Assembly (NCBI RefSeq): GCF_045037415.1
Contig: NZ_CP173438.1
Direction: 5' to 3' (one strand)
Length of the DNA: 64,000 bases
Source of the DNA: Escherichia coli
GTDB lineage: Bacteria > Pseudomonadota > Gammaproteobacteria > Enterobacterales > Enterobacteriaceae
Shown one piece after another: positions 1 to 50,310 of the stretch; within the stretch, counting starts at the first letter, position 1; each line of letters opens with the position of its first letter. The translations under genes and the position numbers were made by a program. Below the pieces are notes generated by a model. That model was not told the origin of the DNA. It ran no database searches and worked only from the letters and a program-made list of their open reading frames with translations.

Positions 1-1535
1 ACTTTTATGAAGAACGCCCTGCGAGCGGTTGGGATATTCGTGCCGAAGCCTGGCTTCCCGCTTATCCGCAGCTTGGCGGTAAAATCGTTTTCGAACATTA
101 TTACGGGGATGAAGTTGCGCTATTTGGTACCGACAATCTAGAGAAAGATCCCTTCGCTGTCACGTTAGGCGTGAAATACCAGCCTGTTCCGCTCATTGCT
201 GTAGGAACGGACTTCAAAGCAGGAACCGGTGATAACACCGATACCACGGTCAACGCAACGCTTAACTACCAGTTTGGCGTCCCGCTCAAAGACCAGCTTG
301 ATCCTGACAAAGTGAGCGCGGCTCACTCACTCATGGGCAGCCGTCACGACTTTGTTGAACGTAACAACTTTATTGTTCTGGAATATAAAGAGAAAGATCC
401 CCTCGATGTCACTTTGTGGCTGAAAGCTGATGCGATGAATGAACATCCCGAGTGCGTGATTAAAGATACGCCAGAAGAAGCTATCGGGCTGGAAAAATGT
501 AAATGGACCATTAACGCGCTTGTCAACCACCACTACAAAATTGTCGCTGCGTCATGGCAGGCGAAAAACAATGCCGCCCGCACGCTGGTGATGCCGGTTA
601 TCAAAGAGAATACCCTGACAGAGGGCAACAATAACCACTGGAACCTGGTGCTGCCCGTCTGGCAGTACAGCTCTGACAAAGCCGAACAAGGAAAACTCAA
701 TACCTGGCGGGTTCGCCTGGCGCTGAAAGATGAAAAGGGCAACCGACAGAACTCAGGCGTGGTGGAAATCACCGTTCAGCAGGACCGTAAAATTGAGCTG
801 ATTGTTAATAACATCGCGAACGTGCCGGAAGAGAACAACCACAGCCACGAAGCCAGTGCACAGGCTGATGGTGTAGATGGTGTGGTGATGGATCTCGATA
901 TTACTGATAGCTTTGGCGACAACACTGACCGCAACGGTAATGTCTTGCCGCAGGATAATCTCAACCCGCAGCTGTTTGATGCCAACGATAAAAAAGTGAC
1001 GCTGACGAATAACCCCTGCACTACCGAGACTCCCTGTGTCTTTATCGCCAAACAAGATAAAGAAAAGGGGACCGTTACGCTCTCCAGTACGTTGCCTGGC
1101 ACCTTCCGTTGGAAGGCGAAAGCTGCCCCCTATGATGACAGTAACTATGTTGACGTAACGTTCCTGGGGGCTGACATCGGCGGGCTGAATGCCTTTATCT
1201 ATCGCGTTGGTGCGGCTAAATCCGTGAATCTTATCGGCAATAAAGAACCGTTGCCCCTCAATAGCCGATATCGCTTTGTGTTGTGGCGCGACGCTAACAA
1301 AGACGGTGTGTTCCAGCTATCTGAAAAGCTCACTGACGAAGAGATGAAACAGTATGACTACCAATGGGAATTCACGGGGCATAGCGTAAATGGCAATACT
1401 GGCGCGCAAGCCAATACCACTAACGTCGATATCGAGATCCCGGCAACGAACAAGGAAGCGGCAGCGAAGTTTAGTGCCCAGGTAACCGATGGTGTGCAAG
1501 GGTACGGTTTGCAGGTCAATTACAGCAAGACATAG
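1..1535 (+). CDS. sinH: Intimin/invasin-family inverse autotransporter (SinH-like), 3' portion; 5' end lies outside the window
   Basis: Frame is open from the window edge to the stop at 1533-1535. First residues in window (..GKIVFEHYYGDEVALFGTDNL..VGTDFKAGTGDN..) resemble the end of an intimin beta-barrel followed by passenger domains. Order sinH-sinI-ratA-xseA matches CS54-type island synteny (established knowledge). Confidence 0.6.
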   Translation, partial: FYEERPASGWDIRAEAWLPAYPQLGGKIVFEHYYGDEVALFGTDNLEKDPFAVTLGVKYQPVPLIAVGTDFKAGTGDNTDTTVNATLNYQFGVPLKDQLDPDKVSAAHSLMGSRHDFVERNNFIVLEYKEKDPLDVTLWLKADAMNEHPECVIKDTPEEAIGLEKCKWTINALVNHHYKIVAASWQAKNNAARTLVMPVIKENTLTEGNNNHWNLVLPVWQYSSDKAEQGKLNTWRVRLALKDEKGNRQNSGVVEITVQQDRKIELIVNNIANVPEENNHSHEASAQADGVDGVVMDLDITDSFGDNTDRNGNVLPQDNLNPQLFDANDKKVTLTNNPCTTETPCVFIAKQDKEKGTVTLSSTLPGTFRWKAKAAPYDDSNYVDVTFLGADIGGLNAFIYRVGAAKSVNLIGNKEPLPLNSRYRFVLWRDANKDGVFQLSEKLTDEEMKQYDYQWEFTGHSVNGNTGAQANTTNVDIEIPATNKEAAAKFSAQVTDGVQGYGLQVNYSKT

Positions 1536-1584
1536 GAACAGCGCCATGGCTGATCGGGCCACCGCTGAATGTTAACCAAGGAGA

Positions 1585-2583
1585 GTGTTTATGAAACCTC
1601 ATATGAAACGTGGCCTGACAAAAGTCGCGCTGGCACTGATGCTGGCTGGATACTGTGCCGTACCAGTCGCTATGGCGGAAGATGCTGCCTGGGTCGCCAG
1701 TGGAACGACAGCTGAATTCGAGGGGACCATACCCTGGCTCTATCGCGAAGGGGGGAATGCTACGATTAACTCGGAAGATGCGGATCACATCAAAGTGACA
1801 TCTGATAGTAAAGGTATCCGTCCTGCAGGTAGCGAGTCTGATAAACGCCTTTACTCAGGGGATACCATCACGCTGGGTTGGGATATCGGCGATACCGAAG
1901 GGGATATCGATGATGGTTCCGCAGGCATTGATGCGAAAACGACGGCGACCATCAAATGGTACAGCTACAGTGATAATGCGGGTGGCGGTAAAACGGAGTT
2001 GACTGCGGCGGCAGGAAAAACCAGTTATAAAATCACCGATGGCGATCGTGGACGCTATATCGGTGTTGAAATCCAGCCTATCACTCAGACCGGTAATCCC
2101 TTCCAGGGAACTTCGCTGACTCTGCTGGATATTTCTACGGCCAGCGGTGGCGGCAGCGATACGGATAATGTCGATCCTGGTCCGGTTGTTAACCAGAACC
2201 TGAAAGTTGCCATCTTCGAGAAAGACACCAGTACCAACCTTATCGGTGGTAATACAGCCATTGCGCTTAACAAAACGTATGTGGCCAAACTGTACTCGGA
2301 TGAAAACCAGAACGGTAAATACGACGCGGGTACGGATGTGGACGTTACCGCTAACTACGACTTTGCGTGGGTCTTTAACGGTAACAGTAAACAACTTGCG
2401 GCGGCGGGCGGTATTGCCAACGCCAGCTTCGATAACAATGACATTGTTATTCCGCAAACTAACGAACAAGCAAGAACCAGCCTTAACGGTAGTGACCGTA
2501 ATGGTAAGACCGGCCTTGCAATCCCGGCAAACGGCGACGGCGTTCAGGGCTATACGCTGTCTATCATTTACAAACACCACTAA
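1585..2583 (+). CDS. sinI: SinI-like secreted protein (332 aa) with signal peptide
   Basis: RBS aaggagag upstream; N-terminal signal peptide (MKRGLTKVALALMLAGYCAVPVAMA); C-terminal about 100 aa homologous to the C-terminus of the preceding intimin-like protein (..NGNxxxAxAN..DIxIPxTN..DGVQGYxL..Y). Confidence 0.6.
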   Translation: MFMKPHMKRGLTKVALALMLAGYCAVPVAMAEDAAWVASGTTAEFEGTIPWLYREGGNATINSEDADHIKVTSDSKGIRPAGSESDKRLYSGDTITLGWDIGDTEGDIDDGSAGIDAKTTATIKWYSYSDNAGGGKTELTAAAGKTSYKITDGDRGRYIGVEIQPITQTGNPFQGTSLTLLDISTASGGGSDTDNVDPGPVVNQNLKVAIFEKDTSTNLIGGNTAIALNKTYVAKLYSDENQNGKYDAGTDVDVTANYDFAWVFNGNSKQLAAAGGIANASFDNNDIVIPQTNEQARTSLNGSDRNGKTGLAIPANGDGVQGYTLSIIYKHH

Positions 2584-24695: not shown

Positions 24696-25300
24696 GCGAG
24701 AAGCCCAATGCTGCGGGATTGATTGTATCCGGTGATAAAAACCCGAATTGGAAGGGTGGGAAAATCGAAAAGGTTTGCTCCGTATGTGGCAGGCAATATC
24801 AGGTTAAGCGAGCCAACTCATCTTCAAGGTTCTGCTCACTTCAGTGTGTAGGAATTTCACAGCGAGGCAAGACGGTAAATCGGGAACTAAAGCGAGTATT
24901 AAAAATATGCTGCGTATGCGGATCTTCGTTCTCCGTTTTCTTGAGTCATGAGAAGCGTCATAAATGCTGCTCGAAACAGTGTTCCAACATAATGCGTTCT
25001 TCTCTGATGAAGGGGGAAGGAAATCCAAACTGGTCTGGTGGATTATCGAGATTGCCGTATCCGTGGGATTTCCGAGAAACGAGCAAGAGGGTTATTGAGC
25101 GAGATGGTTTTACTTGTCAGAACCCAGGTTGTGATGGAACAGACAAAAGGCTAACAACTCATCACATCAATTACGACAAGCAAGATTGTCGTCAGGAGAA
25201 CCTTATTTGCCTTTGTTCGAGCTGTAACTCGAAGGCTAATTTCGGTCGGCATAAGTGGCAAAAGTTTTATGAATCACTGATGAAAAATAGATCGGCATGA
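24692..25300 (+). CDS. HNH endonuclease
   Basis: C-terminal HNH signature (..TTHHINYDKQDCRQENLICLCSSCNSK..); multiple CxxC pairs; start overlaps previous stop. Confidence 0.75.
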   Translation: MSEKPNAAGLIVSGDKNPNWKGGKIEKVCSVCGRQYQVKRANSSSRFCSLQCVGISQRGKTVNRELKRVLKICCVCGSSFSVFLSHEKRHKCCSKQCSNIMRSSLMKGEGNPNWSGGLSRLPYPWDFRETSKRVIERDGFTCQNPGCDGTDKRLTTHHINYDKQDCRQENLICLCSSCNSKANFGRHKWQKFYESLMKNRSA

Positions 25301-30557: not shown

Positions 30558-30614
30558 TCCGCTGGTGGGGATAATGTCGTTGATATCCTCTGATGAGGAT
30601 AAAACAAAGCCAGC

Positions 30615-31022
30615 TCATCGGCTGGCTGTTTGTGACATGTCACTGTGTTGTTGCTCGCTTAACTTCTGCTTCAGCAAGTAACCTTCAAGCATCCAGATTT
30701 TGTTTACAGCATTCTGCCGGGCAATCTTCCGACCAATTTCTGCATCAAAATTTTCCGGACTTGCACAGGCACTCTCTCCGGTGACAGTGAAGCCATTCTT
30801 CAGCACCAGTACGCAGAAAGTGAGAAGGTGCAGAGCATCAGGGGTGGCTTCGACATAAGGCTCCGGATTATAAATAAGGTCATCTTCTTTAGCCTGGTGA
30901 TCACCCTGCGCAGCAGTGAAAAAATGCTCACTGCAAATGAGGCCTTCAATTTTCTCAGGTGTTACACGCGGTGCCGTTTTGCCTTTCTCAACGATTTCTT
31001 TTTCGATTTGCTGGTCGTTCAT
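30615..31022 (-). CDS. Gp49-like phage protein, accessory gene in opposite orientation
   Basis: 135 aa; family assignment from memory only; inserted between terL and portal on the opposite strand. Confidence 0.45.
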   Translation of the reverse strand: MNDQQIEKEIVEKGKTAPRVTPEKIEGLICSEHFFTAAQGDHQAKEDDLIYNPEPYVEATPDALHLLTFCVLVLKNGFTVTGESACASPENFDAEIGRKIARQNAVNKIWMLEGYLLKQKLSEQQHSDMSQTASR

Positions 31023-31219
31023 AATCTCACCTTAAAAAAATGCCCGGCGAACCGGGCGAACTGGAAGCAATGAGTTATGCCTTCCGTGGCTGTACTGGTT
31101 TACAGCATGAAGTCATCGCAATGGCGTCCTGCTGTAAAAAGGGCGGTGATAGTCCTTCAAGGGAAACCATCACCGCCAAGCCCCTGGAACTTCTGGCATC
31201 ACGGTCCTTAGGCGTGATT

Positions 31220-31296
31220 CTGGCGTGGCATGCAGGATTCGAACCTGCGACCAACCGCTTAGAAGGCGGTTGCTCTGTCCAACTGAGCTAATGCCA
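31220..31296 (-). tRNA. tRNA-Arg (anticodon UCU), phage-encoded
   Basis: Folded by hand: acceptor GTGGCAT/ATGCCAC, D-arm GCTC..GAGC, anticodon stem ACCGC/GCGGT with loop CTTCTAA (anticodon TCT), T-arm GCAGG-TTCGAAT-CCTGC, discriminator G and encoded CCA. Confidence 0.85.
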
Positions 31297-31619
31297 CAAC
31301 GCTGAGAGCACTTAGCCTGTTAAGGCGCCACACTTTGTCGCGGCTCCATAAATGCTCTCATCGTTGTACCCTCGTCTCTTCCGAGGCGTCACACCGAATC
31401 GCCGGGATGGTGAATCCCCGTGCGCGGAATAAAACCGCTCGACTTGCACATTCCGGCTACCTGGTTCGTTTGCCCGAGCAAGGGAGGGTGCCCCTTAAAC
31501 GTATCCAGACCGCTATCGGCGCATGTGCCATACGCCGTACTGCTCAAAATAAAAGCTCACTCCACCTGTTCAATTTAACGACAATCCAGTCAGGTTAGTA
31601 ACCGGAATGAACTCTTTGG

Positions 31620-31634
31620 TTACCTGAAAGGTAA
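31620..31634. promoter_or_regulatory. Palindromic operator-like motif TTACC-TGAAA-GGTAA upstream of the head gene cluster
   Basis: Perfect copy about 90 bp upstream of ORF 31725. Confidence 0.55.
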
Positions 31635-31724
31635 TAATTTGTGCGTTAAATGTCAACTATCTACGATAAATAAATCATATGTGGTTAAATTGGTAATAAT
31701 TTAATTGCGTACGGAGTCATTGAT

Positions 31725-31931
31725 ATGTGCATGGGTAGCTCACCATCAGTGCCTGCAACACCAGAAGTTCAGGCAGCACCACAGGAGCAGGATGCCGCCG
31801 TTGTTGATGCCCGCGACGAAGAAACACGTCGCCGTCGCGCTGCTGCTGGTCGTAGTTCTACGCTGCTTACCGGTTCTCAGGGCGACACATCAACCGCTAA
31901 TACCAGCGGTAAAACGCTGCTTGGTCAGTAA
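31725..31931 (+). CDS. Small hypothetical protein (68 aa) preceding portal
   Basis: SD ggag upstream; the RBS context cggagtcattga is repeated in front of the portal gene. Confidence 0.4.
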   Translation: MCMGSSPSVPATPEVQAAPQEQDAAVVDARDEETRRRRAAAGRSSTLLTGSQGDTSTANTSGKTLLGQ

Positions 31932-31945
31932 CCGGAGTCATTGAA

Positions 31946-49380: not shown

Positions 49381-50037
49381 TCAGAAGAACCCTGCCTTGT
49401 CGTTGATGTACTCCGCGTGCGTCTGGATATCACGCAGGCATTTGCTCACACCAACGATGTAGCAGAACATGGTGGTCAGCTCCGCCGCCGCGCCCGATAC
49501 GTCGTGCCCGTCGTCCTGTAACTGGTTCAGCAGATTCATCAGCAGTGAGTTCTCCGTCAGGCCGAGAACACCAGACGGCGAGTGAATCAGGCTGCGGTAG
49601 CCGGGCTTCAGTGGGGCACTGTATTCTTTTTTGTCTTCCAGCTTGATCGCCTCCATAATGGCGGGCATGAAGCCTGACAAGACCTTCTCCACTTTTGTTT
49701 CTTGTTGTCTTAAACGTTTCTCGCATTCAATGAAGTAGCGTCGCACCTGGCGACCTTTTTCGTTACGCTCGACCATCGCCAGCTCTTTGGCTGTATCAAG
49801 GGTGAGGTGGTACTCTTTGCGGTTGTGGCCGCCTCTACCAGATGTTTGCTTTCCCAAATTGGAAAGCAAAATATAGTCTTGATTTTCAATGAATTCGTAT
49901 TCTGATATGCGATTTGTAATCCATGCTGCAAACACCTTTTTAACACCTAAAAAAGCGTGCAGATCGCGGGCATTACAAAGTAGGGCTGTTTCGTTAGATA
50001 TAGTGCCGTTGAATACGGGGATGAGTTGAGCGTTCAT
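49381..50037 (-). CDS. Antirepressor (AntA-like N-terminal domain plus KilAC-like C-terminal domain)
   Basis: N-terminus ..[36 protein letters not shown].. matches the AntA/AntB pattern as recalled; C-terminal about 80 aa homologous to the downstream 85-aa protein. Confidence 0.65.
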
Positions 50038-50310
50038 GATGGCGTCTCCACTTAGCGAATTACATCACCACCGCTGAGAACCAATCAGATGGTGGTGAAC
50101 TGAACGGAGTTGGTCTTACCGGCCTAAGTGGTACCGGCGTCCTTTCGGACCCCCATTCAGCCCACCATAATTCTGGCATGACTGTGCTATACGCATAAAA
50201 AAACCACGTCTGGCGTGGTATGCGCCACTTAGTAATCCGGGAGAACCAATCCCGGCACTGGATTTTGCCAGTGCCCGATTACTATGGCACAAGAGGAGTG
50301 CGATGTAAAT

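Follow-up and report, generated by a model that had tools for sequence, protein, structure and literature searches.

What fills the 1.4 kb between the terminase (TerL) and portal genes of a prophage in Escherichia coli, and what might it do there? The interval (positions 30558-31945) lies in a stretch of 64,000 nucleotides, hereafter the window, of contig NZ_CP173438.1 (assembly GCF_045037415.1). A first-pass annotation, made from the letters alone, had taken it for an insertion between genes that are otherwise adjacent, carrying a Gp49-like gene, a tRNA-Arg(UCU), and ∼320 bp of apparently non-coding, structured DNA (31300-31620). The last of these descriptions was borne out, but that this part contains a widespread element had gone unseen. 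The element, termed element A here, is a real RNA encoded on the minus strand of the window, and the 1.4 kb around it, rather than a fresh insertion, are an early transcription unit that reads leftward and is ancestral in phiV10/epsilon15-like phages. The predicted promoter, the RNA, the tRNA, the terminator-like hairpins, and the protein gene all read leftward, a strand logic absent from the first-pass annotation.

A conserved pseudoknotted RNA

Element A is built from short helices with conserved loops, and 13 phage copies have invariant blocks in common. P1 is a 5-bp stem closing an 11-nt loop (UAUGGCACAUG). In P2, UCYG pairs with CRGG and encloses a variable hairpin; the invariant block GGUAGCCGGAAUGUGCAAG follows, and then another variable hairpin. 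P4 (4 bp) carries the loop UUCACCA, and P5 (5 bp) the loop GAAGAGA. Two pseudoknots complete the arrangement: GCACAU of the P1 loop with AUGUGC of the invariant block (PK1), and CACC of the P4 loop with a downstream GGUG (PK2). A covariance model built from an alignment of 28 sequences recovered 100 further copies at 113-172 bits. P1, P2, P4, P5, and PK2 covary (in PK2, C-G occurred 75 times and A-U 9 times). PK1 was invariant apart from three wobble changes; its pairing is compatible with the sequences but unproven. A long-range alternative for the 5′ hairpin, proposed by RNAalifold, was dropped in favor of the local P1 stem, which covaries.

Across 89 distinct sequences, 98.8% of 2480 cells were paired, and 14 pairs had changed on both sides (221 cells). 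None of 500 shuffles reached the observed pairing values, and when the registers were slid against each other, pairing dropped to 25-49%. The central 19-mer was unchanged in 185 of 192 copies that had been collected via a different motif at the 5′ end. G-U pairs were frequent at three positions of element A, and the RNA strand is therefore the minus strand of the window. Folding of 31300-31620 gave a z-score of -3.9 for the minus strand, compared with -1.5 for the plus strand.

A protein-coding reading of 31300-31620 was rejected, despite the fact that open reading frames (ORFs) are annotated over homologous DNA. Reading frames anchored at the core were open in at most 31 of the 89 distinct homologues, whose lengths (167-197 nt) fell into all classes modulo 3; thus, no frame is conserved and the indels are not multiples of three. 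The ORF calls at 31040-31291 (+) of the window, phiV10p04, mEp460_036/037, and Tyrion gp53/gp54, which lie over element A or antisense to the tRNA, are probably spurious. With Rfam 15, only the tRNA was found at the locus: in 31298-31620, nothing reached the gathering score and only chance-level matches appeared at E<=5. The element A loci of P1, mEp460, mEp390, and BUCT708 likewise gave no Rfam match for the element. Exact-sequence and keyword searches of the freely readable literature (subscription literature was not covered) returned no description of it.

BLAST with 31298-31620 found ∼80% identical, unannotated DNA in very different phages, both lambdoid (mEp460, cdtI, Ayreon, and Stx2c converters) and other (P1, P7, D6, SJ46, RCS47, Klebsiella phages, and a phage labelled Stenotrophomonas), and in 590 plasmid records, mostly non-mobilizable. 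Element A was present in 1839 of 5426 complete E. coli genomes, with up to four copies per genome; among the matches listed in these genomes, none had an annotation under it. When 100,044 species representatives were searched for the exact core, it occurred in Enterobacterales only, apart from two short metagenome contigs labelled Bacillota and Lachnospiraceae. Irrespective of the phage type, there was no fixed protein gene downstream: the element lies directly after the predicted PL promoter in lambdoid phages apparently lacking N, between trnI and ban in P1, and between TerL and portal genes in Uetakeviruses. The whole mEp460 genome contained one copy, as did the window, whereas E. coli K-12 CPS-53 and SfV contained none.

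The leftward unit in the window

The prophage is phiV10/epsilon15-like (Uetakevirus) and integrated at the 3′ end of guaA. Its 41-kb region is 99.98% identical to that of E. coli A1.S1.18, and phiV10 and its relatives cover 96-97% of the segment from TerL to portal at ∼97.7% identity. A transcript of the unit would run from the promoter/operator (∼31620-31656) through element A (31540-31351), a long stem termed P6, the tRNA-Arg(UCU), and two terminators (T1 and T2) into the Gp49-like gene, which belongs to the Acb4 family (Table 1).

Table 1. Positions and strands of the features in and around the TerL-portal interval (numbering of the window)
Feature	Position	Strand	Remarks
TerL	end 30557	+	flanks interval
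Hairpin terminator common to the convergent TerL (+) and Acb4-like (-) genes	30608-30627	both	minus-strand terminator-like site
Gp49-like/Acb4-family gene, 135 aa	30615-31022	-	PF13876; candidate sponge for cyclic nucleotides of the cyclic-oligonucleotide-based antiphage signaling system (anti-CBASS)
T2, strong intrinsic terminator	31035-31057	-	GCCCGGTTCGCCGGGC + T7; ends ∼20 nt before the Acb4-like start codon
T1, conserved hairpin	31134-31177	-	GGCGGT...ACCGCC, then CTTTTTACA; terminator-like hairpin 31177-31142
tRNA-Arg(UCU), anticodon TCT, CCA encoded	31221-31297	-	ARAGORN; Rfam RF00005, 73.3 bits (gathering 29)
P6, long stem AAC-[stem]-GUU	31298-31361	-	3′ end abuts tRNA G1; RNase P-type junction GUU|GUGG
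Element A, ∼190-nt pseudoknotted RNA, unannotated family	31351-31540	-	covariance-model match, 158.5 bits; only copy in window
5′ leader, predicted start to element A	31541-31621	-	inferred from promoter position; weak hairpin 31585-31606
Operator-like palindrome	31620-31634	both	TTACCTGAAAGGTAA, TTACC-N5-GGTAA type; overlaps -10 and predicted start
Predicted leftward sigma-70 promoter	31628-31656	-	consensus match only; -35 TTGACA 31656-31651, 17-nt spacer, -10 TACCTT 31633-31628
gp3-like ORF, 68 aa, conserved partner of the portal gene	31725-31931	+	PHROG 831, E=2e-36; in all relatives examined
Portal gene	start 31946	+	flanks interval

In each of the six Uetakeviruses examined (phiV10, SPN9TCW, Tyrion, two Klebsiella phages, and epsilon15), TerL and portal were 0.9-2.1 kb apart, with a cargo gene on the minus strand between them, and no relative had an empty site, which contradicts an insertion between otherwise adjacent genes. 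Element A and the tRNA occurred together in Escherichia, Salmonella, and Klebsiella members. The tRNA was present in Escherichia and Salmonella members and in one Klebsiella member and absent from Tyrion, the Klebsiella ST11 phage, and epsilon15. In epsilon15 (locus 2629-2724), only the 5′ third of element A remains (37 bits), and it runs directly into the 3′ half of T1. The junction sits in the motif GGTTCCCTTGA, similar copies of which occur at both places; thus, the tRNA was lost from epsilon15 in a deletion that fused two such motifs. The stretch labelled 'RNaseIII' in the epsilon15 record overlaps the remnant of element A and its leader.

The insertion reading had drawn on a repeated ribosome-binding context, taken for a duplication made when a Gp49/tRNA cassette had recently entered. 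The 12-mer CGGAGTCATTGA does occur exactly twice in the window (31712-31723 and 31933-31944, plus strand), a few bases from the previously given positions 31709 and 31931. One copy is the Shine-Dalgarno context of the gp3-like ORF and the other that of the portal gene, so that together they bracket gp3 and not the cassette; epsilon15 has different sequences at both sites and no repeat. With one mismatch allowed, at least two matches were obtained in 10 of 100 shuffles. A target-site duplication was rejected on these grounds, together with the missing empty site. That the cargo gene is not the same among relatives could be cited for a recent insertion, and the interval indeed bears accessory cargo as had been proposed. 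However, the interval is universal in the genus and epsilon15 exemplifies loss, not original absence, which makes a recent 12-bp-duplicating insertion highly improbable.

The TTGACA -35 box of the predicted promoter and its spacing were invariant in the six Uetakeviruses. The palindrome overlapping the -10 box recurs in ten exact copies (21157-50705), all inside the prophage and none outside; when one mismatch was permitted, 18 were present in the window versus ∼1.1 expected by chance under the same criterion. Exact copies flank the repressor gene on both sides and precede several operons (terS, the RNA unit, and the ant region), and the homologous site in epsilon15 is annotated as a repressor site. 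Such dispersed palindromes point to a repressor with many operators, as for C1 of P1. Because the -10 box overlaps a repressor-type palindrome, the unit is probably under repressor control, that is, silent in the lysogen and expressed early on induction.

The association with promoters extends to other loci. Sense promoter-like sites within 140 nt upstream of element A were found in 84 of 163 non-redundant loci, compared with 6 in the antisense orientation and 0-3 in two distal upstream and two downstream control windows. The nearest upstream gene encoded a co-oriented CI/LexA-type repressor in 55 of ∼130 viral loci. In mEp460 and mEp390, the cI stop codon is followed by an intrinsic terminator, an operator-flanked TTGACA promoter, and element A at ∼+40 to +48. 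A motif, GUCGUUAAAU...GGAGUGCGCUUCCAG(G/U)UGUG, is contained in the leader upstream of element A in Uetakeviruses (window 31541-31620, minus strand), lies downstream of element A in mEp390-type phages (one locus, 1560-1760, minus strand), and forms the 3′ strand of a P6-like stem in some loci. Its recurrence might be a trace of modules that once stood in tandem.

Neither the tRNA nor the Gp49-family gene is out of the ordinary, and RefSeq already annotates both. The first-pass annotation was correct in calling the tRNA well formed, with ARAGORN and Rfam in agreement and the minus strand now assigned. It is identical to E. coli argU at 64 of 77 positions (counted on the alignment); three acceptor-stem pairs that differ are all compensated, and the D arm, anticodon loop, and T arm equal those of argU, except for one D-loop base. 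Arginyl-tRNA synthetase recognizes A20, C35, U36, and G73 as identity elements; these, and the anticodon UCU, can be read directly in the sequence. AGA amounted to 6.9 per 1000 codons in early and 5.0 in late prophage genes but did not occur among 1468 codons of the three flanking host genes (xseA, guaB, and guaA). As AGA is frequent in the prophage and absent from these host genes, a role in codon supply is reasonable, and the tRNA would then support AGA decoding for an AGA-rich phage. Its cloverleaf, UCU anticodon, and encoded CCA are those of other argU-like phage tRNA-Arg(UCU) from AGA-rich phages; in contrast to these, it is not part of a tRNA cluster among late genes but stands between a structured RNA and terminators, within a leftward early unit. 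Integration at guaA uses a site adjacent to int, and therefore the tRNA is not an attachment-site fragment, which disposes of an origin as attP remnant. ARAGORN found no tmRNA.

The product of the Gp49-like gene matched Phage_gp49_66 (PF13876; N4 Gp49/Sf6 gene 66) with E=5e-34 over model positions 1-82 of 82, as the earlier naming implied. PF13876 has since been defined as the Acb4 family, tetrameric sponges for CBASS cyclic dinucleotides, of which eight of eight homologues tested bound 3′3′-cGAMP (Chang et al., bioRxiv 10.1101/2024.12.30.630793). By sequence, the protein matched the SPO1 Acb4 structure (PDB 9e4w) with E=0.004. Its AlphaFold model (predicted local distance difference test score, 90.4) had chains of 9e4w as all top 13 Foldseek matches in the PDB, with probabilities of 0.97-1.00 and target-normalized template-modeling scores of 0.48-0.71; the matches that followed were unrelated, with probabilities mostly <0.4 and at most 0.80. 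With SPO1 Acb4, the protein shares the Pfam domain, predicted fold, small size, and phage origin, but it is only 24% identical, with ∼55 extra residues at the N terminus and an additional long helix at the C terminus; it may form tetramers and bind ligands as Acb4 does. The gene probably encodes an Acb4-type anti-CBASS sponge, a re-annotation that follows from the 2024 preprint. Its ORF is ∼11-12 residues longer at the C terminus than most homologues (∼124 aa; phiV10p03, 123 aa), and this extension (30615-30650) runs into the bidirectional terminator hairpin, the homologue of which is annotated in phiV10 as a plus-strand rho-independent terminator.

In the Klebsiella phage ST512-KPC3phi13.3, the slot of the Acb4-like gene holds a Tad2-like gene (1135-1656, minus strand of the locus; PF11195, E=2e-25) behind the same arrangement of element A, tRNA, T1, and T2. 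The SPN9TCW protein in the slot had no Pfam match. Because Acb4-like, Tad2-like, and unmatched proteins alternate in one place, the slot looks like an exchangeable anti-defense cargo site, and the re-annotation of the window's gene is a useful one.

Possible roles: cis-acting leader or separate RNA

Four minus-strand terminator-like hairpins lie in the interval (31177-31142, 31057-31042, 30627-30608, and a weak one at 31606-31585), the first two of which belong to T1 and T2. The T1 module (GGCGGU...ACCGCC, then CUUUUUACA) followed element A in 97 of 175 non-redundant loci and was never present in antisense; its stem covaries and its flanks are conserved. The distance from element A to T1 varied between ∼120 and 550 nt (∼215 nt in the window), and the intervening sequences, tRNA or other RNAs, were unrelated. 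At least one sense terminator-like hairpin was present within 700 nt downstream of element A in 148 of 176 loci, versus 67 in antisense. T2 precedes the cargo gene in phiV10, SPN9TCW, Tyrion, and the Klebsiella ST512 phage, regardless of which cargo it is, and is annotated as a terminator in epsilon15. Because it ends ∼20 nt before the start codon, there is no room for a promoter of the cargo gene. The GGCGGTA of T1 resembles the RfaH-recruiting ops site (GGCGGTAG). Function of ops requires G8, which was missing in the variants seen, and T1 was not considered an ops site.

The order of promoter, element A, RNA cargo, terminators, and genes without room for a promoter is like that of PL-putL in HK022 and PL-nutL in lambda, and a cis-acting leader that modifies RNA polymerase was therefore ranked first. 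In this tentative reading, to which we assign somewhat less than even chances, element A would carry RNA polymerase through the downstream terminators as put of HK022 does. It would fold on the nascent early transcript and act in cis on the polymerase that made it, which would then read through untranslated, structured RNA cargo and through T1 and T2 to the early genes: the anti-defense gene in the window, yfdP-type early-left genes in lambdoid phages apparently lacking N, and ban in P1. In mEp460, no N-like gene is annotated from PL to the first of the early-left genes, and neither a second element A nor put was found in this phage. That lambdoid phages of this early-left type lack N has been noted in a survey, in which a put-like mechanism was guessed (Casjens and colleagues, 2025, PMC12315714). 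The restriction to Enterobacterales fits an RNA that recognizes one host machine.

Several points weigh against such a leader. Both promoters and terminators were predicted from consensus. In SfV, element A is missing although T1 and the same genes after it are present, so that readthrough of T1 does not always need the element. Conversely, P1 and some other loci have element A without any terminator-like hairpin in the next 700 nt, and epsilon15 has kept T2 and a cargo gene after losing most of the element. There is a single copy per genome, as opposed to the left and right pairs of put and nut, and neither size nor structure is shared with put. Finally, the GUU|G junction is conserved where a tRNA or acceptor-like stem follows, which suggests that RNase P cuts element A off the downstream RNA. 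Such a cut would break the tether that put-type modification needs over long operons.

This junction is central to a different explanation, doubtful but to be taken seriously, in which element A and P6 constitute a discrete, stable, trans-acting non-coding RNA, made early from a strong promoter and with its 3′ end freed by RNase P at GUU|G. In P1, the 5′ end would be generated by tRNA 3′ processing. The RNA would bind a conserved host or defense factor, for instance as a decoy or sponge in an island of anti-defense and RNA genes, and T1 and T2 would only attenuate, such that much RNA and little mRNA is made. P6 follows element A in over half of the loci, with a conserved base and 41 distinct variants (42-131 nt) in which many compensatory changes were evident by inspection. 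All variants end with GTT|GTGG, followed by a tRNA or by an 'GTGGTGAATGCG' RNA unit, GUGG corresponding to G1 of tRNA-Arg(UCU) or to the start of the structured unit GUGGUGAAUGCG...CACCAC. The tRNAs adjoining element A were always on its strand (65/65), among them 54 Arg(UCU) on the downstream side and 10 CAU immediately upstream; P1 shows the opposite order (trnI, 14 nt, element A, ban). Further in favor of a free RNA are the ultra-conserved loop, junction, and pseudoknot sequences, neighbors that are themselves RNA genes (the tRNA, a weakly STnc100-like unit, and a sub-threshold RprA-like unit), the lack of a fixed downstream protein gene, the P1 copy without a nearby terminator, and the Acb4-like and Tad2-like anti-defense neighbors in Uetakeviruses. 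On the other hand, the candidate partner is only hypothetical, processing by RNase P is inferred, most loci have no terminator directly after element A, and the strong terminators immediately ahead of promoterless genes are left unexplained.

The RNA neighbors merit description in their own right. A second conserved non-coding unit, GYGGUGAAUGCGG...GGCACCRCAAC, bounded by an acceptor-like stem, was found in the locus extracts of P1 (2993-3112, minus strand), SfV (∼24860-24950, minus strand), and mEp460 (∼30990-31110, minus strand). In P1, it lies upstream of tciA; in SfV and mEp460, it precedes T1 and yfdP, at the position of the tRNA in the window. The P1 copy gave a sub-threshold match to Rfam STnc100 (33 bits; gathering 47), the mEp460 copy (element B) no Rfam match. 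In vB_SmeS_BUCT708 (1855-1974, minus strand), an RprA-like sequence of full model length directly follows element A (50 bits; gathering 70), and the motif CTGTGTGTAGTC from the 3′ part of RprA occurred downstream of element A in 36 of 212 loci, before T1 where inspected. Judging from these similarities, phages may carry RprA mimics in their early-left leader.

Two other roles appear less likely. Element A could be a processing or stability module, either a 5′ cap against 5′-end-dependent decay or a self-cleaving ribozyme that defines RNA ends. Consistent with this, it heads primary transcripts or, in P1, immediately follows the processed 3′ end of a tRNA, and it has a compact pseudoknotted fold, comparable in size with glmS. 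However, generic protection requires neither an invariant 19-mer nor invariant loops, no known ribozyme family matches, and RNase P already explains the 3′ junction; because of the invariant single-stranded sequences, we regard this role as improbable. Alternatively, a complex conserved fold that lies in a 5′ leader and precedes a conserved terminator module could be an aptamer that senses a ligand or factor and, like a riboswitch, sets expression of the early operon via T1. The variable distance to T1, with unrelated sequence between, makes a competing expression platform impossible, P1 lacks T1, and no riboswitch family matched; a sensing aptamer is, mainly because of this distance, a quite remote prospect.

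A broader form of the polymerase-modifying reading, plausible but less likely than not, can also be proposed: element A would be an unrecognized class of such leader RNAs, acting by processive antitermination or against Rho. It would be the missing early antiterminator of N-less lambdoid phages (yfdPQR/cdtI/mEp460/Stx2c type, which are many). P1 would employ the same RNA for its ban operon, and epsilon15-like podoviruses would employ it to express anti-defense cargo behind two terminators.

Element A and known phage RNAs

Element A belongs neither to put, nut, or C4 nor to any Rfam family. ROOL and GOLLD are likewise conserved, structured prophage RNAs next to tRNA genes; they are, however, 500-800 nt long, occur mostly in Firmicutes and other phyla, and are represented in Rfam, and neither matched here. 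The C4 RNAs of P1 and P7 and the CI RNA of P4 are phage regulatory RNAs, one end of which is possibly made by RNase P, and P1 itself carries element A. No relation in sequence or structure was apparent, nor an evident antisense target, and the Rfam C4 matches in the window are elsewhere: at 50088-50274 (minus strand), C4 antisense RNA and isrK (61 bits each) reach their gathering scores directly upstream of the antirepressor gene ant (∼49381-50037, minus strand), in what resembles the RNA-controlled ant module of P1 immI.

The nut sites of lambda, which act with N, are placed likewise, in the PL leader before terminators. They are far smaller than element A, and mEp460 has neither an annotated N-like gene nor an evident boxB; only a loose boxA-like sequence (CGCUCUUUUUACA) is present in the 3′ shoulder of its T1.

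The closest parallel is put (putL/putR) of HK022, a lambdoid phage without N. As with put, a structured RNA lies just after a repressor-controlled early promoter (for element A, as judged from consensus promoters), terminators are located downstream, the range is limited to enterobacterial phages, and the module is self-contained, independent of the sequence that follows (PMC9378689). The architecture differs: put has ∼70 nt and two stem-loops and is present in two copies, one per early operon, whereas element A, at ∼170-195 nt, has five helices and two pseudoknots and is present once. The covariance model found nothing in 6 kb of HK022 (23.5-29.5 kb), a stretch in which cI, nun, and put are unannotated and the presence of put is unconfirmed. 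Membership in put was rejected because of the different size and architecture and the absence of a match in these 6 kb; by analogy, element A may nonetheless work like put. What has to be explained is an RNA of ∼190 nt with six supported pairings and near-invariant loops, found in roughly one third of complete E. coli genomes, as well as in P1, Stx2c-converting phages, and many other temperate phages, and mostly positioned just after a predicted strong promoter (under repressor control in the cases examined), with terminators further on. If it acted in trans, it would be a new, abundant phage RNA with a partner to be found. If it modifies RNA polymerase, it would explain how N-less lambdoid phages pass their early terminators, and it would be a second natural put-type RNA, with a different fold.

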